Below are positions 45,194 through 55,001 of a stretch of 61,887 nucleotides of DNA, piece by piece (position 1 is the stretch's first letter; each line of letters starts with the position of its first letter). Made by a program: the position numbers and the translations under genes. Source of the stretch: Candidatus Omnitrophota bacterium (lineage in GTDB: Bacteria > Omnitrophota > Gorgyraeia > Gygaellales > Profunditerraquicolaceae); assembly GCA_043809145.1 (NCBI GenBank), contig JAZDED010000024.1, forward strand, positions 1 to 61,887, in the 5' to 3' direction. A model generated the notes under the pieces. The model ran no database searches. It saw nothing but the letters and a program-made list of their open reading frames with translations, and had not been told where the DNA came from.

Positions 45194-48100
45194 TTATTGT
45201 TTCTCTTTTCTTTCTGTGGCGATCTTTTCTGCTAATTCCTTAGGAACCTGAGAATACTTTTTAAATTCCATGGAAGCGCTTGCCCTGCCGCTGCTTAAGG
45301 AGCGAACATTAGTAGTATAGCCAAACATCTCTGAAAGCGGAACCTCGGCAGAAATAACCTTCTGCCCTGACTTAGTCTCCATATTTAAGATTTTACCCCG
45401 GCGTGAACATATATAACCGACAATACTGTTTAATGATTCCTCCGGGGTAGTCACCTCTAAGGCCATGTAAGGCTCAAGCAATACCGGCTCGGCTTTCAGA
45501 AAAGCTTCCTTAAAACCCATGCTAGCAGCAATCTTAAATGCAAGTTCCGAAGAATCAACATCATGAAAAGAACCATCTACCAGGCTTACGCTTACATCCA
45601 CAATTGGATAACCGGCATATGCCCCTTTTTGCATGGCTTCCACTATACCTTTTTCTACCGAGGGTATAAATGATTGCGGTATGGCTCCGCCTTTAATGCT
45701 ATTTATAAATTCAAAACCTTTGCCGGGATTAGAGGATATTTCCAGTACAACATGCCCGTACTGGCCGCGCCCTCCAGTCTGACGCACATACTTGCTCTCG
45801 GCAGAACTAGATTTGAGAATCGTCTCGCGAAAAGCAACCTTAGGCTGTCCGATAACCGCCTCTACTCCAAACTCTTCTTTAAGCCTATCTACTATTATCT
45901 CCAAATGCAATTCCCCCATACCCATAAGAATAGTCTCCTTGGTTTCTTCATCACTCTGCACCAAGAATGTGGGATCCTCTTCGGTTAACTTCGCCAACCC
46001 CTTGGCCATTTTATCCTGTTCTTTGCGGCTCTTGGGGGCAATACTTAAAGAAACTACAGGTATTGGAAATTTAATTGACTCCAATAAGATATGGTTATCC
46101 AGGTCACAGAGAGTATCACCGGTTATTGTATTGGTAAGCCCGATTAATCCCACGATATCTCCAGCAAAGGCATTTTCAATATTCTCCTTCTGGTTAGCAT
46201 GCATCATCACAATCCTGCCAATGCGCTCTCTTTTATTCCGAGTGGAATTAAAAACATAAGAACCGGTACGCAAAACCCCGGAATATACCCGGGTATAAAC
46301 CAACTTACCCATATGTGGATCAGCCTGAATCTTAAAAGCTAAAGCAACCAAAGGTTCTGATGATTCCGGACGGCGCAAAATAACTTTTTCCGAATCCTGA
46401 GGATCATATCCGCGCACAGCGGTTATCTCTAAAGGAGAAGGTAGATAATCAATAACAGCGTCTAAAAGCTTCTGCACTCCCTTGTTCTTAAAAGAAGACC
46501 CGCAGACAACCGGGACTGCCTTATTGGAAACGGTCCCTTTACGTATTGCCGGAATAAGATCCTCTTTGGTTATTGATTCTTCCGATTCCAGGAATTTTTT
46601 AGTCAAATTGTCATCAAAGACAGCCGCCTTCTCAATCATGATATGGCGGTATTCTTGAGCTTTCTCCAGTAAATCCTGCGGAATATCCTCGATAATAAAT
46701 TCCTTGCCCTGGGATTCTTCCTGGTAAATACAAGCTTTCATCTCTACAAGATCAATGATGCCGCGGAATTGACTCTCTGCGCCTAAGGGAATTTCTAGCG
46801 GTATACAATTAGCGCTTAATCTTTCTTCCATCGCCTTAAGCACGCCGTAAAAATCCGCGCCGGCGCGGTCCATTTTATTAATAAAGGCGACTTTAGGCAC
46901 ATGATATTTATCCGACTGACGCCAGACGGTTTCAGATTGCGGCTCAACCCCTCCTACGGCGCAAAATACAGCAATAACCCCATCAAGTACCCTTAAGGAT
47001 CGCTCGACTTCAACGGTAAAATCTACGTGTCCCGGAGTATCGATAATATTAATACGATAGTCTCGCCAATAGCATGTCGTCGCAGCAGAAGTAATGGTAA
47101 TCCCACGTTCCTGTTCCTGTTTCATCCAATCCATTTGCGCCTTACCGTCATGTACCTCTCCTATTTTATAGGAACGCCCTGTATAAAATAATATTCTTTC
47201 AGTTGTAGTAGTCTTTCCGGCATCAATATGTGCAATAATCCCGATATTCCTGACCTTTCCCAACTCAATGCGAGCAACGGGAATGGCTTCTTTTTTAGTA
47301 ACCGGGTGCTTTTTTTCTTTGGGCGTGTTTTTTGTAGTTTTAGTTTCAGAAGATAATTTATCCTTCTCGCCTTGCTCATCTTTTATTTGCGGCTGGCTAA
47401 CAACCTCAGGTATTATTTCCTTATCTTCAATTACTGGTGCGGAAACTGGCTCTGCTACGGAAACCAAATCTGCAGATAGCGGCTCTGCGGGCGATTGCTC
47501 AACAGGTGCTTGTTCTATTTTTAGCTGCTCAAGCGGTTTTTCTACCTCTTGCGCAAGCACCAGATCATCTTTTACAGTTAAATCCTTGGCACTACCAGCT
47601 TCCTTAGTTTTATTCTTTGTTTTTGCTAATTCCTCTAATAATGACCTTAATTTATCTTCCTTAGACTCCAGATCCTTCTCTAGAATAGTATACTCCTCAT
47701 TTAACTGATTGAATTCTTTTTTAAGTTGTACATGCGCGTCTTTGGCTACCCAATCGCTCTTCTCCTGCTTCCTGTTTATCTCAACTATCTCACCTTTGAG
47801 CGCCTGAAGGTCTGTATTTTTTTGCTGCAGGGCCTTGGCATGGCCTTCAAGCTGGTGCTTCAGGCTTTCAATCTCATCTGCCTTCTTCCTATTCTCCTCT
47901 TCTAATTTCTGGCAGGCCTCTTTGGACTCTCGGAACTCTTTATTGGAATTAACATTTTTAGAAAACTCCTCCTCCAACTCTTTCTCTTTAAGGATTAACT
48001 TCTGTTCTAACCCCTTCTTATCCAAGCCTGAACTCTTTAGTATCCCTTCATTATTTTTAATCCACTCATCCCGCTTAGCAAGCTGTTCCTTTAAAATATC

Positions 48101-48322
48101 TTCCCGCTCCTTGGCTTCATTTAACTTGCGCTTTGCAGCTTCATAATCTGCGGTTATCTTCTCCAATTCAAATCTGAGTGGCACACTGGCATCAGGTAAT
48201 TTAACTGTTTCATTAATCACAGGTCCAAGACGGGGCAACTTATCTTTAACCCCGAACATAGACAAGGCGTATACCACCAGGCCTAAACCAGTTATAACTA
48301 AAACAGCAATAATAACCAGCAT
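45194..48322 (-). CDS. fusA: Elongation factor G paralogue with N-terminal TM anchor and coiled coil
   Basis: From about aa 350: [45 protein letters not shown]; aa 1-22 hydrophobic; aa about 50-245 E/K/Q/L-rich; AGGAG RBS. Confidence 0.88.
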
Positions 48323-48944: not shown

Positions 48945-49370
48945 CTAACCTTTATCTGGAAAAACCCTCTTGATCATCTCTCTTTTTTCGCAGATACGTC
49001 TTTGAGCCTGCGCAAGATTCTTTAAGATGTCTTCTGCCTTAAGCGGTTTAATCAGGTATCCGCAGGCATTATTTTCAATAGCTTCAACACATTTATCCAC
49101 AGTAGAATAGCCAGTTACCATAATTACCTCGGCCTTAATATTGAATTCCCGGAACTTTTTTAAGAATTCAAATCCGTCCATATTGGGCATAACGATATCG
49201 CAATAAACAATATCGATATCATCCGACTTAACCTTATCTAACCCCTCCTGTCCATCACCGGCAGTAAAAACCTGATAGCCCCGGCGTTCCAGTATGCTTT
49301 TTATCCTTTCGCGGACATCCTGTTCATCATCTACTACCAGTATCTTTAATTTACTGCCCAGGATAGCCAA
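48945..49370 (-). CDS. Stand-alone response regulator receiver
   Basis: VVDDE, phospho-Asp in CDIVMP.MDG, TG, KP; TTG start. Confidence 0.92.
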   Translation of the reverse strand: MAILGSKLKILVVDDEQDVRERIKSILERRGYQVFTAGDGQEGLDKVKSDDIDIVYCDIVMPNMDGFEFLKKFREFNIKAEVIMVTGYSTVDKCVEAIENNACGYLIKPLKAEDILKNLAQAQRRICEKREMIKRVFPDKG

Positions 49371-49498: not shown

Positions 49499-49936
49499 TT
49501 ACTGTTGCGGCTGCTCTTTGGCTGAAAGCGCCCTCTTTAACATTTCCCTCTTTTGTTCAATACGTCTCTCAGCTTCAGATAGATTTTTGAGGATATCCTC
49601 GACATTCAAAGGCTTAATAAGGTAACCACAGGCATTCTGTTCTATTGATTCAACACAGCGATCCACTGTCGAACAACCGGTAACCATAATAAATTCCGTC
49701 TTAAGGTTAAATTCCTTTACCCTTTTCATAAACTCAATGCCATCCATATTGGGCATGACAATATCGCAGTAAACGATATCCACCTCTTCCTTCTTGAGTA
49801 TATCTAAACCCTCCTGTCCATCACCGGCAGTAAAAACCGTATGGCCCCTGCGCTGCAGGATATTTCTTATTCGCTCCCGAACATCATCCTCATCATCAAT
49901 AATTAATACTTTTAATTTACTTTTATTTTCTTCCAT
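49499..49936 (-). CDS. Stand-alone response regulator receiver (paralogue of previous gene)
   Basis: IIDDE, CDIVMPNMDG, TG, KP. Confidence 0.92.
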   Translation of the reverse strand: MEENKSKLKVLIIDDEDDVRERIRNILQRRGHTVFTAGDGQEGLDILKKEEVDIVYCDIVMPNMDGIEFMKRVKEFNLKTEFIMVTGCSTVDRCVESIEQNACGYLIKPLNVEDILKNLSEAERRIEQKREMLKRALSAKEQPQQ

Positions 49937-50013: not shown

Positions 50014-50529
50014 TCACTTCCTTCGAAGCTTCCTGGAACGGGTAATCAAATCCTGAATGTAGAAGGAAAAAAATCCGGCATATTTCTTTTGCAGAACAGG
50101 ATTCTTCCAATCGTTAGTAGTTATCCTGCCACGGCAGTTCTTTGCTTTACAGCGGCACTTAAAACTATAATTGAAATCCGCATCCGTCATGGCATAATCA
50201 TAGGTTATTTCTTCGCCTCTTTTAATATCACGCATTGCTACCATTAAAATCTGCCCCCTAATCCCGGCATTAGGATTACAGGAATGATTAAAAAAATCGT
50301 CGTCTTCTAACAATCCCATTTTAGAAGAAACCATATAAAATCCATCCGCGACCTTAGTAGCATAGTCGTCTATCTTCTTAAAAGCTGTACGGGACAATTT
50401 ATTATACTCACTCTGGGTAATAATATAACCTCCCCAAACTGCAATTACTTCGTCTTTTTTTATATCTTTAACCGCAAAGACGCCTTTACGGTTTATGCCC
50501 GAATAAGAAACCTTTACCTTATTATTCAT
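50014..50529 (-). CDS. SET-domain N-methyltransferase with post-SET Cys motif
   Basis: KGVFA, NHSCNPN, GEEITYDY, C.C....CRG. Confidence 0.92.
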   Translation of the reverse strand: MNNKVKVSYSGINRKGVFAVKDIKKDEVIAVWGGYIITQSEYNKLSRTAFKKIDDYATKVADGFYMVSSKMGLLEDDDFFNHSCNPNAGIRGQILMVAMRDIKRGEEITYDYAMTDADFNYSFKCRCKAKNCRGRITTNDWKNPVLQKKYAGFFSFYIQDLITRSRKLRRK

Positions 50530-50539
50530 GTATGAATGT

Positions 50540-51547
50540 TTAAGCATCCGCCAACTTTTTCTCAATTGTAATAGAATAATCTTTTAGCCGGTTCAAAATA
50601 TTCTTAAATAAATATTCTTGTTTTCCCAGTTCCTCCATAAACAACAACCCCTGACAGTTGACTTCCCCCTCTAACAGAAGATCCGCTACTACCGCCGGAA
50701 GCGCGCAAGTTACTTTCTGCATAGAGTTCATCGCCTCATTTCTGGAAGAAGAGCTTTTTACCAACCAGCGCACTTTATTGACGCTTGAGCTAAAATTAAG
50801 CTCGGCAAAAGTAATATTATCTGATTTTTTGCTCTCCAATATTCTTTTACTTGTGGCTAGATTTTTCAAACGAAAGAAACCATAGGATTCTAAATATTTA
50901 AAGAAATCCATAAAACCCCGAGGCCTTACTACACGATAGGAGAAATTACGTAACCCTTGATAATCCATAAGGTTCTCGAAGCCGCTTGCGCAATAATAAC
51001 TTTCTGCCTCCTGCCCAAAAAAACTCTCTCTTATATAGCCGGAAAAAGGAAAGCACTTTTTTTTCTTGCCTTTGAAAAACTGCCATGAAGACAATTTATG
51101 ACATAAAACAATATCTTCAAAACACCAAAGAAAAGGATAACAAAATTTACTTTTGGATAAAGAACCAGCCTTGATTTCAATCTCCCTTATATTCTTATTA
51201 TCCGCAAGCTCTCTGCCGATAATCGCATTCACTAAGCCAGGGCTAATACCGCAGCCGGGAATAACCAGGATGCCTTTTTTAGCAATAGCTTTTTCATACC
51301 TAAGATAAAACGGAGGATCGATATCAGATATATCAATTAAATTTTTACGGAATTTTAAAGCGGTTTTTAAACAATTCTCACCCAATGCTCCGGGTAATGC
51401 CCCGATAAGGATATCGTATTTAGAAACATCTTTATCCTCAGGGTAAAATGCTACCCTGCCAATACGGTGATTTTTTAATAAAAATTTAAAGACGCCCCGG
51501 GCAATCCGGCCGTCACCTAGAATAAGAACCTTGGATTTTGTTTTCAT
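50540..51547 (-). CDS. Saccharopine dehydrogenase / lysine 6-dehydrogenase-like oxidoreductase
   Basis: Rossmann LGDGRIA, ALPG, IDIS, GCGISPGL; ATGA overlap with speE. Confidence 0.78.
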   Translation of the reverse strand: MKTKSKVLILGDGRIARGVFKFLLKNHRIGRVAFYPEDKDVSKYDILIGALPGALGENCLKTALKFRKNLIDISDIDPPFYLRYEKAIAKKGILVIPGCGISPGLVNAIIGRELADNKNIREIEIKAGSLSKSKFCYPFLWCFEDIVLCHKLSSWQFFKGKKKKCFPFSGYIRESFFGQEAESYYCASGFENLMDYQGLRNFSYRVVRPRGFMDFFKYLESYGFFRLKNLATSKRILESKKSDNITFAELNFSSSVNKVRWLVKSSSSRNEAMNSMQKVTCALPAVVADLLLEGEVNCQGLLFMEELGKQEYLFKNILNRLKDYSITIEKKLADA

Positions 51548-52437
51548 TTTGCAAGCTGCCACAATTTCGGCATAGCCATACTTGCCTGGTGCATGGAAGG
51601 TGTATAATAACGCAGAGACTTCTCTTTATCGGTCAACCTTAAGCGCAGCCTGCGGGCAATTTCTTTTTCCGGTATAGCTTGAGGATTTATCTTCTTAGAA
51701 ACCATTACAAAACAATATTCGCTTCCGCAGCTGTAAGATGGCATAGGCAGTCTCACAGGATTAACATAGGTAAATAATTCTTTTAATTTACGGCAGGTAG
51801 GCTTAACAATAAGATCGAAATCCAGGAAAGGGCCTAACTGAAAAATCGCTATCCCATCTTTTTTTAAAGCATCGAATACCAACCGATAAAAATCGAGCTG
51901 AAATAATACTTTTCCGGGACCAACAGGATCCGTTGAATCAACCACAATTACATCAAAAAAATTCTTATGCCCCCGGACTAATTTCTTTCCATCAGTAAAG
52001 AATACCTTGACCCTTTTATCGGCAAATACGCCTTGGGAAATAAATGAGAGGTATTTTTTTGCTACCTCCACTACCTGCTTATCAATATCCACAAAATAAA
52101 TTTCTTTTAAAGGGTGCTTGGCAGCCTCACGCAATACCCCTCCGTCTCCTCCTCCGATCACCAGCAAGTGCTTCGGATGCGGATGGCTTAAAAGCGGAAT
52201 GTGGCTTATAACCTCATGATAAATAAATTCGTCAGCTTGAGACAGCTGGATAATTCCATCCAAAGCCAACATCTTGCCAAAACCCGGGCTTTCAAAAATA
52301 TATATATCCTGGAACTTACTTCGGCCTTTATAAATTTCTTTCTGGATACGAAAAGCGTCGGCCTTACACCTGCGCACTCCCGGAAATGATGTTTCCAGAA
52401 ACCACTCTTTCCTGGGAAAAATTATCTCTTCTTTCAT
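51544..52437 (-). CDS. speE: Polyamine aminopropyltransferase
   Basis: SKFQDI, LDG..Q, YHE, IGGGDGG, DSTDP. Confidence 0.93.
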   Translation of the reverse strand: MKEEIIFPRKEWFLETSFPGVRRCKADAFRIQKEIYKGRSKFQDIYIFESPGFGKMLALDGIIQLSQADEFIYHEVISHIPLLSHPHPKHLLVIGGGDGGVLREAAKHPLKEIYFVDIDKQVVEVAKKYLSFISQGVFADKRVKVFFTDGKKLVRGHKNFFDVIVVDSTDPVGPGKVLFQLDFYRLVFDALKKDGIAIFQLGPFLDFDLIVKPTCRKLKELFTYVNPVRLPMPSYSCGSEYCFVMVSKKINPQAIPEKEIARRLRLRLTDKEKSLRYYTPSMHQASMAMPKLWQLAK

Positions 52438-52802
52438 TATTTACCCCTTTTAATCAACATGACTTTAACCTTTTTGGGATTAAACACATCTTTAAGATAC
52501 TCCAGCGCCTCATAAGGTTTGGTCTTTCTGCCGCAGGTGAAGATATCCAATGCCAGATACTCATGTTCCGGCCAGGAATGAATAGCAATGTGGGATTCAG
52601 CTAACAAAACAATGCCAGTTACCCCTTGAACAGGAAATTTATATATCGAGGTTCTTAAAGCCGTATTGTTCGCCACTTTAGCTGCAGTTAATAATATCTT
52701 TCTTATCTTACGCGGATCATCAATACATTTCGGAGACTCAAAATCCGCAATCAGATGAAAAGAATAGGGTTTTTTATGTCGCTTATTATCTTTACATTTC
52801 AT
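52437..52802 (-). CDS. speD: S-adenosylmethionine decarboxylase proenzyme
   Basis: LAESHIAIHSWPE cleavage motif and DIFTCG. Confidence 0.9.
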   Translation of the reverse strand: MKCKDNKRHKKPYSFHLIADFESPKCIDDPRKIRKILLTAAKVANNTALRTSIYKFPVQGVTGIVLLAESHIAIHSWPEHEYLALDIFTCGRKTKPYEALEYLKDVFNPKKVKVMLIKRGK

Positions 52803-52883
52803 ATCTATTATATCCTAAATTGACCCGCATATTTTTATTCTATACATATTTTATAAAAAATCAAACTTAAATATAATATTTTT

Positions 52884-54212
52884 TTAGATATGCCTAAAAA
52901 TCCGTAAAACCTTCTTAGCTGCCTGGGCAGGTGAAGATAGAGACATTTTCAAAAAACGGGCTAAAGAGGCGGGCTTCATCGCAAAATCAAAAAATATGCG
53001 TGAACGCAGGCGCTTAATTTCATCAACAGTAAGAAATTCACTTACCCGGATCTGTGTATCGTCAGGAGAAAAAACCTTCCAGTTGATTATCTGAGGTATA
53101 AATCCCTTCTCCTTGCACCAATCCCATATCTGCGTACCGGGAAAGGGAGTCGCCATACATAACCCGATGCAATCAATATCATTTTCCATGATAAACTTGC
53201 GCGTAAGCTGTATATCTGCTTTGGTTTCATGCGGAAGCCCGAGTATGAAAAAAGCAACACAGATGATTCCCGCCTCTTTACATAGCTCCACCGCCTTTTT
53301 ATTTTCTTCTACCTTTGTTCTCTTTTGCATAATATCCAACATTTTTTGAGAGCCGCTTTCGAACCCAAAAGCAATCTGGCGGCAACCAGCCTGAAAAGCC
53401 TCTTTAAGAATCTGCTCATCAATAGTATTAACTCTGCAATTACAACCCCAGATTATGCCAAGGTTGTCTTCTCGAATCAGTTGAAATATTTTTTTTGCTC
53501 TTTCTTTATTGGCAAAAAAATCATCGTCAAAAACAGTAATAGCCTGCGTCTTATATGTATCAATCAGGTATTTCATATCCCTGACTACCCGTTCCGGAGA
53601 ATTAAATCTAAACGGCATGCCCCTCCAGGTGTTATGGCAGAATATGCAGGAGTAAGGACAACCCCTGCCGGTCAACATTGATGCCACCTTATACCCTTTA
53701 GGAACAAAAATAAGCGCTGTATTATAAGGAGCGCGCTCTCGCGCATTCAAATAAAAATCCATATTCATCAATTGATATGCCGGAGGAGGCAGAGTATCCA
53801 AATCTCTGATATAATCCCGGGTAATAACTTTTTCTCTAGCGCCGCCTGAGACAATATCCAACATAGCCTGCTCTCCCTCGCCTTTAACTACAATATCGGC
53901 ATGCTTTAATGCTTCCTCTGTCATCACCGTAGCATGCACCCCTCCTAAAACAGTGAGAACACCCTGCTGACGGCAAAAATCCGCATGCCGATAAGCATGT
54001 TCTACAAAAGGCGTGGTAGCGGTAATCCCGGCTATATCAGGCTTATAATCTTTAATACCTAACTCGACATTATCCCCGGCAACTTCATCAATAATCTTTA
54101 CCTCAACGCCTTTTTCAATAAGTGAAGAGGCAATAAAACCTAATTGCAAAGGTTCATGGGCATCAAAGCGCCCACCTCTGCCGGGATTAATTAAAGCTAC
54201 TTTTTTTGTCAT
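52884..54212 (-). CDS. Cobalamin-binding radical SAM protein
   Basis: B12-binding N-domain (LGGVHAT, GEGE), RGCPYSCIFC, GFESGS, TPFPGT. Confidence 0.9.
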   Translation of the reverse strand: MTKKVALINPGRGGRFDAHEPLQLGFIASSLIEKGVEVKIIDEVAGDNVELGIKDYKPDIAGITATTPFVEHAYRHADFCRQQGVLTVLGGVHATVMTEEALKHADIVVKGEGEQAMLDIVSGGAREKVITRDYIRDLDTLPPPAYQLMNMDFYLNARERAPYNTALIFVPKGYKVASMLTGRGCPYSCIFCHNTWRGMPFRFNSPERVVRDMKYLIDTYKTQAITVFDDDFFANKERAKKIFQLIREDNLGIIWGCNCRVNTIDEQILKEAFQAGCRQIAFGFESGSQKMLDIMQKRTKVEENKKAVELCKEAGIICVAFFILGLPHETKADIQLTRKFIMENDIDCIGLCMATPFPGTQIWDWCKEKGFIPQIINWKVFSPDDTQIRVSEFLTVDEIKRLRSRIFFDFAMKPASLARFLKMSLSSPAQAAKKVLRIFRHI

Positions 54213-54335: not shown

Positions 54336-54373
54336 AATACAAGAGGCCCAGTATTTGCTGGGCCTCTTGTATT
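54336..54373 (-). terminator. Strong hairpin, probable terminator
   Basis: AATACAAGAGGCCCAG/CTGGGCCTCTTGTATT perfect 16-bp stem 20 nt after the stop of 54393-55001. Confidence 0.75.
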
Positions 54374-54392: not shown

Positions 54393-55001
54393 CTACCTTT
54401 TGCGCCCCTGGGCACCTGGAGCTTTACCGCCACCTTGGCCACTATCACTTGACCTGCGATTAGGGCTTACTCCGGGGCCACCTTGTGGCCCGGGCTTATT
54501 CTCCCAATTAGTACCTGGCCCACCTTTAGGCCCAGGAGGATTATTGTCCCTGTCTTGAACCCTCTGTCTCCATTGCTGCGCTTCTGTTTGATCAACTATA
54601 CCATCCCTATTCGTATCAGTAGCCCTTTCCCAGCCTCTATCTACAACAGCCCGATCATTCATAAAGTTATCCCCGGGGCCATTTCCTTCTTGCTGTTCAA
54701 GAGATCCGCCGGCATTCCTTTGTCTCCATTGCCTTATTTCTACATCATCCACTACACCGTCTTGATTTGTATCAGCAGCTTTCTCCCACCCCTCATTAAC
54801 CCTGGTTCTTTCTCGAAGATTTTTGGAGCTTGTACCAGGACCGCCTTGTGGCCCGGGCTTATTCTCCCAATTAGTACCTGGCCCACCTTTAGGCCCAGGA
54901 GGATTATTGTTCCTGTCTTGAGCTAAACTAAAAGATATGGTTAGAGTTAAAATAATAAAAAACACAAAAACAACTGCAATAAACTTAACCCCTCTGCACA
55001 T
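54393..55001 (-). CDS. Secreted Pro/Gly-repeat protein with two EF-hand-like loops
   Basis: Signal peptide; 2x NNPPGPKGGPGTNWENKPGPQGGPG; DTNQDGVVDDVE and DTNRDGIVDQTE loops; GGAGG RBS. Confidence 0.8.
   Translation of the reverse strand: MCRGVKFIAVVFVFFIILTLTISFSLAQDRNNNPPGPKGGPGTNWENKPGPQGGPGTSSKNLRERTRVNEGWEKAADTNQDGVVDDVEIRQWRQRNAGGSLEQQEGNGPGDNFMNDRAVVDRGWERATDTNRDGIVDQTEAQQWRQRVQDRDNNPPGPKGGPGTNWENKPGPQGGPGVSPNRRSSDSGQGGGKAPGAQGRKR

Follow-up and report, generated by a model that had tools for sequence, protein, structure and literature searches.

In our study, a 61,887-nucleotide contig of a Candidatus Omnitrophota genome (JAZDED010000024.1, hereafter the window; contig C24 of an assembly of 0.96 Mb that is 66% complete) was found to contain four open reading frames (ORFs) that follow one another in the same orientation, all on the minus strand (50014–52802). 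In the direction of reading they are speD, speE, a gene encoding a dehydrogenase-like protein and a gene encoding a SET-domain protein. They would form a cluster for polyamine biosynthesis in which two of the enzymes, both of them uncharacterised, tailor the product. As a conserved unit shared by many uncultivated bacteria, they point to an undescribed modified polyamine, which is probably N-methylated. The features of the locus are as follows.

52437..52802, minus strand: speD, a class 1b S-adenosylmethionine decarboxylase proenzyme of 121 aa (Pfam and NCBIfam).
51544..52437, minus strand: speE, a canonical polyamine aminopropyltransferase of 297 aa (NCBIfam and PDB matches).
50540..51547, minus strand: an enzyme of the lysine-6-dehydrogenase/saccharopine-dehydrogenase fold, 335 aa, as predicted from an AlphaFold2 (AF2) model, Foldseek and a profile.
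50014..50547, minus strand: a predicted SET-domain methyltransferase of 177 aa that has a post-SET zinc motif as well as a conserved C-terminal extension (Pfam and AF2 model).
52837..52864, minus strand: weak promoter-like hexamers TTGATT and TAGAAT, 16 nt apart, in the 81-nt gap upstream of speD (consensus scan, 9/12).

The distribution of the genes was studied in 40 relatives together with the window genome (41 genomes) and in 401 genomes sampled evenly from the phylum. The SET and dehydrogenase genes were each found in seven of the 41 genomes, and the seven were identical. Six related loci contained the order speD-speE-dehydrogenase-SET; one related contig begins within the first speE, and two tandem speE genes were present there. 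SpeE orthologues (E ≤ 1e-87) were confined to those same seven genomes. Of the remaining 34 genomes, two contained distant SpeEs, 18 contained matches only inside ORFs of 384–810 aa (17 of them at least 701 aa), and 14 contained no SpeE match at 1e-10. Since the SpeE orthologues are restricted to the genomes that possess the module, the four-gene unit is either there or missing as a block. The sequences flanking the module vary from genome to genome, which suggests mobility. At the level of the phylum, 17 of the 401 genomes contained any match to the dehydrogenase, 13 of them strong (E ≤ 1e-86), and 57 contained some SET protein, 13 of them close (E ≤ 1e-52, 51–67% identity). The same 13 genomes, from 11 genera in 4 families, contained both the strong dehydrogenase and the close SET, whose genes adjoined each other in all 13; the four-gene arrangement is therefore far beyond chance.

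A pattern scan of species representatives with the dehydrogenase alignment yielded 49 loci, six of which were the loci from the close relatives. The speE gene was directly upstream of the dehydrogenase in all 49 loci, which came from several phyla. The speD gene was present upstream in 40 loci, absent despite 4 kb of upstream sequence in six, and cut off in three. A SET orthologue was found downstream in 37 loci; 11 loci were without it despite at least 2.2 kb of downstream sequence, and one was cut. The initial annotation had asked whether SET genes stand beside speD and speE elsewhere, and this proved to be so, SET being inherited together with speE and the dehydrogenase. The invariant core consists of the aminopropyltransferase and the dehydrogenase, to which SET, a BpsA-like gene or additional copies of SpeE are added as accessories.

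The loci without SET were mostly from the candidate phyla radiation (CPR), namely Nealsonbacteria and Paceibacterota (some records are titled Saccharibacteria); the others were one Nannocystaceae metagenome-assembled genome (MAG) and one Saprospiraceae MAG. The CPR loci contained a BpsA_C-domain protein of about 375 aa between speD and speE (73 bits in L058), and the matches to the domain in L094 and L091 reached 85 and 68 bits. Two tandem speE genes were present in three Omnitrophota loci (L044, L054 and L055). The Nannocystaceae locus (L063, 4010–5977) encoded a dehydrogenase domain fused to a C-terminal Spermine_synth domain in a protein of 655 aa, with two more aminopropyltransferase genes close by, and the same architecture was found in a 641-aa cluster representative (P0149). 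In L020 (5498–6739, on a contig shared with L060), speD and speE formed a single ORF of 413 aa with AdoMet_dc and Spermine_synth domains. As a separate observation, a gene encoding an S-adenosylmethionine (SAM) hydroxide adenosyltransferase (SAM_HAT_N/C) was located directly downstream of the dehydrogenase in the CPR locus L064 (5112–5924), and SAM_HAT_N/C genes were also found downstream of distant SET genes in two metagenome loci (L132, 4015–4815; L140, 1935–2783).

These data bear on the possibility that the dehydrogenase and SET genes are unrelated passengers of a mobile speDE cassette and share no common function. The variable flanks of the module would fit such a cassette, and a predicted complex between the dehydrogenase and the SET protein was undecided (score 0.01 with a mark of 0.32) and weighs neither way on binding. 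However, the stop/start overlaps between the genes are conserved, the co-occurrence in 13 of 13 genomes extends over four families, and the pairing with speE holds in 49 of 49 loci across phyla. The dehydrogenase-aminopropyltransferase fusions of L063 and P0149, and the recurrence of the same SET clade beside other polyamine genes (described below), also speak against passengers, and we consider this explanation very improbable indeed.

The junctions between the genes were read individually. The sequence TAATG at 52437 contains both the TAA stop of speD and the ATG of speE, which overlap by one base, and the end of speE and the beginning of the dehydrogenase (ATG at 51547) overlap by the four bases ATGA; the initial annotation had given both overlaps correctly. 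The longest ORF of the dehydrogenase begins at a GTG at 51562 (50540–51562). The SET gene had been said to start 10 bp further on, and an ATG at 50529, 10 nt past the dehydrogenase stop, does fit that statement and gives a version of 171 aa. However, translation from another ATG of the same frame, at 50547, begins with MLKHSY, and a conserved M-x-x-H-S-Y stands at the start of the orthologues. The SET gene therefore probably starts at 50547, with an overlap of 8 nt at the dehydrogenase stop. Among the 31 orthologous loci that bear the motif, the SET start of 28 lay between an 8-nt overlap and a 9-nt gap relative to the dehydrogenase stop. The consensus scan found 19 promoter-like sites in the region compared with a shuffle mean of 20.3, without excess, so the TTGATT/TAGAAT pair is only a candidate. 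The terminator scan of the region was no better than shuffles.

The speD product matched AdoMet_dc with 117.5 bits in Pfam and TIGR03330 with 120.3 bits against a cut-off of 75.65 in NCBIfam. Its translation contains the AESH motif within LLAESHIAIHSWPE, which we take to be the Glu-Ser self-processing site. The speE product matched Spermine_synth with 176.3 bits (Pfam), TIGR00417 with 268.4 bits against 249.55 and the equivalog PRK00811/NF002010 with 282 bits against 260 (NCBIfam). Its top PDB sequence matches were spermidine synthases, at E 3e-55 and weaker, and the module speE was the sole canonical SpeE detected in five genomes searched for it. As their family membership shows, SpeD produces decarboxylated SAM, from which SpeE passes the aminopropyl group on to an amine acceptor, so that a spermidine-type product results. 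The likeness to the ordinary SpeD/SpeE spermidine pathway thus lies in equivalog-level speD and speE genes that are translationally coupled, as in many bacteria. According to passages of one study (PMC6356823), speD-speE fusions occur in some marine bacteria and diatoms, and the single speD-speE ORF of one relative is of that type. Unlike a plain speD/speE pair, speE of this module is always followed by a gene of the lysine-dehydrogenase fold and usually by SET, and the unit is restricted to seven of the 41 relatives.

The dehydrogenase-like protein (50540–51562) scored 28.6 bits for Sacchrp_dh_C (PF16653), slightly below the Pfam cut-off of 31, whereas the family members P0014, P0073, P0089 and P0064 scored 32–39 bits. 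The Sacchrp_dh_NADP domain of Pfam was not detected in the window protein or its family, in which the N-domain is shortened, but it is still present in intermediate relatives. An AF2 model built from 14 family members reached a predicted local distance difference test (pLDDT) score of 89.8 and contained the expected two-domain fold, with a predicted N-terminal Rossmann domain and a glycine-rich loop. The first Foldseek match in the PDB was the L-lysine dehydrogenase of Pyrococcus horikoshii (3abi; TM-score over the query, TMq, 0.82; 22% identity; E 2e-27), followed by carboxyspermidine dehydrogenases (TMq 0.74–0.78), the saccharopine-dehydrogenase domain of human AASS and saccharopine reductase. 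Homospermidine synthases were far lower (TMq 0.59–0.64, root-mean-square deviation 6.5–7.0), and they are 459–475 aa long compared with 335 aa here. On fold and length (about 470 aa), we rejected the identification of the protein as a bacterial homospermidine synthase. The family profile matched 3abi at E 8e-39 and all other solved proteins at 1.8e-5 or weaker. Homospermidine synthase, carboxyspermidine dehydrogenase, lysine 6-dehydrogenase and saccharopine dehydrogenase are placed in one structural family in passages of two studies (PMC13625781; PMC10413350). The initial annotation had stated that carboxyspermidine and homospermidine enzymes share the saccharopine-dehydrogenase fold, and Foldseek and the relevant part of PMC13625781 agree with this. 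Carboxyspermidine dehydrogenase is described in part of PMC10413350 as having a His-Glu-Glu catalytic triad; no carboxyspermidine decarboxylase gene was found within the module.

When 1.84 billion representatives were searched with the dehydrogenase profile, 1512 proteins matched at E ≤ 1e-3 and 31 at E ≤ 1e-30. About 20 clusters (50% identity) reached at least 290 bits, with a steep fall in score beyond them, and the named members were mostly hypothetical proteins of Omnitrophota. By these scores the dehydrogenase family is small and distinct, and its genes always stand beside speE. Its invariant residues include the GxGR loop (G11, G13 and R14), PGCGxxPG, FPFLWCFED and NSMQK, and many Asp and Glu residues are invariant as well. 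Compared with L-lysine 6-dehydrogenase PH1688 (3abi) and its relatives, the two-domain fold, the GxGxxG/A loop, GALPG and PGxGxxPG are shared. The family differs from 3abi in its low identity, the shortened N-domain, its own motifs PGCG, FPFLWCFED and NSMQK, and its strict pairing with speE. One member of 541 aa (P0014) was considered as a dehydrogenase-SET fusion and rejected, as Pfam found Sacchrp_dh_C alone.

L-lysine 6-dehydrogenase is the nearest characterised relative of this enzyme, which raises the possibility of a lysine-centred pathway, in which the dehydrogenase, SET and SpeE would all have the epsilon-amino group of lysine, free or as a derivative, as their site of action and yield an aminopropylated and/or methylated lysine-type compound. 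Methylation of the lysine epsilon-nitrogen is SET chemistry, and the window genome contains a dapB-dapA-dapF-lysA operon whereas a source of diamine was not found in it. However, SpeE lies above the equivalog cut-offs of ordinary polyamine aminopropyltransferases, and the profile alignment places W-C-F-E-D of the family at W-S-P-R-D of lysine dehydrogenase. The Arg to Glu exchange in this W-x-x-(R/E)-D motif would suit a cationic substrate over a carboxylate-bearing one, and the many invariant acidic residues would be better suited to a polycation. The core is also present in CPR genomes of about 0.6 Mb. A lysine-centred pathway is accordingly a quite improbable explanation in our view.

The SET protein (50014–50565) matched PF00856 with 70.2 bits against a cut-off of 22.4 (Pfam). 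It contained the motifs NHSCNPN, GEEITYDY and the post-SET CRCKAKNC (CxCx4C). The N81, H82, S83, C84, P86, N87, D111 and Y112 residues were invariant in 18 SET orthologues, as were C125, C127 and C132 of the post-SET motif. We assume that NHSxxPN is the cofactor and pseudoknot motif and that the Tyr of ELxxDY is the catalytic residue. The AF2 model (pLDDT 91.9) matched the SET domains of MLL4, MLL1, ASH1L and NSD1 in Foldseek (TMq 0.60–0.68), and by membership the protein is an ordinary member of the SET-domain (class V) methyltransferases. Other SET proteins of Omnitrophota share 30–40% identity with the module orthologues. The orthologues contained a conserved acidic LEDDD(F/Y)FNHSC where the paralogues contained NTARFINHSC, and they were further distinguished by a TDAD stretch and by the C-terminal extension DWKxPxLQxKYxGYFSWY. 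An ESM Atlas search with the SET protein returned generic SET clusters only.

A metagenome scan with the SET alignment provided 547 related loci, of which 80 were kept; in 17 of these the SET protein was at least 48% identical to that of the window. Three of the 17 were cut on the 5′ side of SET and the other 14 were classified. The dehydrogenase was directly upstream of SET in 11 of the 14; speE was visible in nine of these, and the other two contigs end within the dehydrogenase. L090 contained speD-speE-SET with the dehydrogenase absent, L093 contained speE-SET, and L094 contained a BpsA-like gene, SET and a major facilitator superfamily (MFS) transporter gene, with the BpsA-like gene and SET overlapping by 4 nt. 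In the cut locus L154, the genes downstream of SET encode a homologue of deoxyhypusine synthase (262 bits), a protein of the arginase family (237 bits) and a GNAT protein. Homospermidine clusters that pair a deoxyhypusine-synthase homologue (SpeY) with an agmatinase homologue are described in part of PMC13625781, and the pair in L154 is of this kind as far as that description goes. A SET-MFS fusion protein (P0127) was also found.

A quick maximum-likelihood tree was built from 45 SETs: that of the window, 11 from modules, six from the variant contexts, 22 of 63 distant ones and five paralogues as the outgroup. All 18 SETs with a polyamine context formed one clade (SH-like approximate likelihood ratio test, SH-aLRT, 87), and none of the other SETs fell inside it. 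The neighbours of the distant SETs were mixed and included RsmB-type methyltransferases, metallo-beta-lactamases, EamA transporters, kinases and further SETs. No polyamine gene was found near the 63 distant SETs (97 flanking ORFs, L096–L160, where only L154 had one). The polyamine link is therefore confined to the closer SET clade. Of the 12 long SET proteins matched, none had a domain of AdoMetDC or of an aminopropyltransferase. Tandem SET-SET proteins of 360–365 aa (P0121–P0123), adjacent pairs of SET genes (L125, L129 and L148) and an ATP-grasp-SET fusion (P0132) were observed among the more distant relatives.

Characterised SET enzymes are nearly all directed at proteins, and the module SET may likewise be a protein-lysine methyltransferase with a regulatory role, acting on a pathway protein (SpeE, the BpsA-like protein or the dehydrogenase) or on a protein that binds or is modified by polyamine. 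This explanation agrees with the full set of canonical protein-lysine methyltransferase motifs, with the post-SET zinc motif and with histone lysine methyltransferases as the nearest solved structures. However, the same SET clade stands beside SpeE, beside the BpsA-like protein and beside the deoxyhypusine-synthase and agmatinase homologues, so that a common class of small molecules would be more economical than a common protein target. The transporter that adjoins SET in L094 and is fused to it in P0127 also speaks for a small molecule rather than a protein. A SET enzyme acting on a free metabolite has been described: according to part of PMC12542666, BurB of Burkholderia thailandensis is a SET-domain methionine S-methyltransferase that acts on free methionine in the first step of a biosynthetic pathway. 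A small-molecule SET enzyme thus has a precedent. BurB (9l4t) matched the module SET at E 1.5e-7 in the PDB sequence search, over query residues 80–152, reaching the C-terminal extension. Both would be small bacterial SET enzymes encoded in a biosynthetic gene cluster and acting on a free metabolite, as far as the description in PMC12542666 extends. They differ in that BurB methylates sulfur whereas methylation of an amine nitrogen is proposed here, and the identity between them is low. On balance, we regard a protein target for SET as rather unlikely.

The reading we prefer is that the dehydrogenase acts on a polyamine C-N bond with NAD(P) and that SET N-methylates a terminal amine of the polyamine; we see about equal chances of its being right or wrong. 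The module would then be a self-contained, horizontally mobile set of four genes producing a tailored polyamine. The dehydrogenase would use NAD(P) to act on a C-N bond of the polyamine made by SpeE, in a step that could be an oxidation or a reductive amination of a terminal -CH2-NH2 or, as a further option, a condensation or transfer of the saccharopine/homospermidine-synthase type. SET would transfer a methyl group from SAM to the nitrogen of a terminal aminobutyl or aminopropyl amine, a group that would mimic a lysine side chain, and the end product would be an N-methylated and possibly rearranged polyamine. This reading draws on the family assignments, the co-inheritance of the unit, the gene fusions, the additional aminopropyltransferases of some clusters and the SET clade beside other polyamine enzymes. 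The acidic stretches of the SET orthologues, the invariant Asp and Glu residues of the dehydrogenase family, the BurB precedent and the SET and speD pieces in a groundwater RNA library also speak for it. SET would be an optional tailoring step on an obligatory speE-dehydrogenase core, and in CPR genomes a BpsA-like branching aminopropyltransferase would take the accessory place instead.

Several points weigh against this reading. What SET and the dehydrogenase act on is deduced from gene neighbours alone. The SET protein resembles an ordinary protein-lysine methyltransferase, its nearest structures being the histone methyltransferases MLL1/4, ASH1L and NSD, and BurB was not seen among the 50 Foldseek matches listed for its model. 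SET is missing in 11 of the 48 testable loci and is therefore an accessory that is not essential to the core. The support for the polyamine-SET clade is moderate (SH-aLRT 87 from a quick search), and the SETs of L068 and L091 are identical in the tree and count once. Binding of the cofactor by the dehydrogenase is assumed from the invariant GxGR, since the window protein falls below the Pfam cut-off and the family is without Sacchrp_dh_NADP.

The amine acceptor presents a further difficulty. A source of a diamine acceptor was not found in the window genome, at its 66% completeness, and the arginase family was found in none of five genomes searched, which were the window genome, three Omnitrophota with the module and a complete Nealsonbacteria genome of 0.6 Mb. 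The sole Orn_Arg_deC_N protein of the window genome is located in the dapB-dapA-dapF-lysA operon and is most likely diaminopimelate decarboxylase. A SpeD-derived ornithine decarboxylase is known from Omnitrophota, according to part of PMC10407285. A divergent SpeD paralogue was considered as the missing ornithine decarboxylase and rejected, as its presence does not track the module: it was found in 12 of the 41 relatives, yet in only one of the seven genomes with the module. The cell may take up the acceptor from outside, or the dehydrogenase may contribute to its synthesis.

Evidence of expression was limited. Part of the stretch was contained in eight public runs from five studies (groundwater, subsurface and biofilm metagenomes), three of which held at least half of its words. 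One groundwater RNA library gave three contigs of at least 99% identity at a depth of about 2.5, all of them short pieces, at 50120–50281 (SET), 52530–52756 (speD) and 52921–53071 (a radical SAM gene upstream of speD); the uncovered parts carry no information either way. They give a weak hint that SET and speD are transcribed; the hint is weak because the contigs are of low depth and possibly derive from carried-over DNA, and this too counts against the preferred reading.

Diatoms reportedly possess AdoMetDC-aminopropyltransferase fusions, some with a histone-type N-methyltransferase (SET) domain, and a 2011 account by Michael in FEBS Lett is said to describe them. The same activities would be assembled here, namely a supply of decarboxylated SAM, aminopropyl transfer and a SET-type methyltransferase. 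The module may thus be a bacterial counterpart, or even the source, of the proposed long-chain-polyamine machinery of diatoms, making N-methylated long-chain or branched polyamines that are free or attached to protein. Aminopropyl transfer would then be repeated, with the extra SpeE or BpsA-like copies present in some loci, and SET would N-methylate the growing chain. The dehydrogenase, in the manner of homospermidine or deoxyhypusine synthase, would make an NAD-dependent cut and transfer the product to an amine or a protein lysine; speculatively, it would stand in for the deoxyhypusine-synthase-like transfer step of the diatom system. Unlike the diatom fusions, the window genes are separate, although one relative has the speD-speE fusion, and we consider a diatom-like machinery improbable. 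The initial annotation had interpreted the operon as an unfused bacterial equivalent of the diatom system with SET acting on a polyamine, an interpretation that is, as a whole, partly supported.

A likeness was also found to the BpsA clusters of hyperthermophiles, as the CPR modules carry the BpsA_C-domain protein between speD and speE. The BpsA-like proteins of CPR and metagenome loci, about 375–385 aa long, match the C-terminal domain only, and the window operon differs from BpsA clusters in being without a BpsA-like gene. No report of a SET or lysine-dehydrogenase-like gene beside a bacterial speE was found in a literature search that left most subscription journals and supplements outside its scope. 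If the preferred reading is true, SET would be the first SET-domain enzyme shown to act on a polyamine, BurB being the only precedent found for a free metabolite, and the dehydrogenase would define a new family of the lysine-dehydrogenase fold whose members are obligate partners of spermidine synthase, and with it a step new to polyamine chemistry. The module would provide a small, unfused and readily expressed bacterial system for the synthesis of N-methylated or otherwise tailored polyamines, and would be relevant to how the silica-forming polyamines of diatoms are made. It would also inform the physiology of Omnitrophota and CPR, whose small genomes retain and exchange the unit as a block.

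A gene encoding a B12-binding radical SAM protein (52884–54212, minus strand) shares the strand of speD and is located 81 nt upstream of it. The top-ranking NCBIfam families for this protein were HpnJ, BchE and P-/C-methyltransferase families, all far under their cut-offs. It was considered as a fifth member of the module and rejected: the paralogue matches were weak (24–28% identity) and were found in 5 of the 49 loci, four of them from one clade. Weak paralogue matches were also found near the module in three metagenome loci. The gene could be a further tailoring enzyme, though it is poorly conserved with the module. Just downstream of SET, two tandem and mutually similar receiver-only response regulators are encoded (48945–49370 and 49499–49936, minus strand). 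In 12 of the 49 loci, receiver genes matching these were found no more than 4 kb from the module; they may regulate the module or may merely be a common gene type.

Further from the module, an ORF at 45194–48322 (minus strand) encodes a protein of 1042 aa similar to elongation factor G, in the translation of which about 340 residues precede the GTPase part. This N-terminal part contains a hydrophobic segment, a long Lys/Glu-rich stretch resembling a coiled coil and a Pro/Glu/Val-rich linker, and the protein is apparently an unusual membrane-anchored homologue of elongation factor G. Two contigs of the window genome were found to share a gene order: C29 (3886 nt) contains argH, a small secreted protein and the start of lysA in the order present at 38–43 kb of C14, with diverged sequence. 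This would be expected if the bin contained heterogeneous strains or a second population. At 54393–55001 (minus strand), a protein of 202 aa contains a hydrophobic N-terminal segment, duplicated NNPPGPKGGPGTNWENKPGPQGGPG blocks and two D-x-N-x-D-G motifs resembling EF-hand or dockerin motifs, all below the Pfam cut-offs. The gene is followed by a perfect hairpin with a 17-bp stem at 54336–54373.

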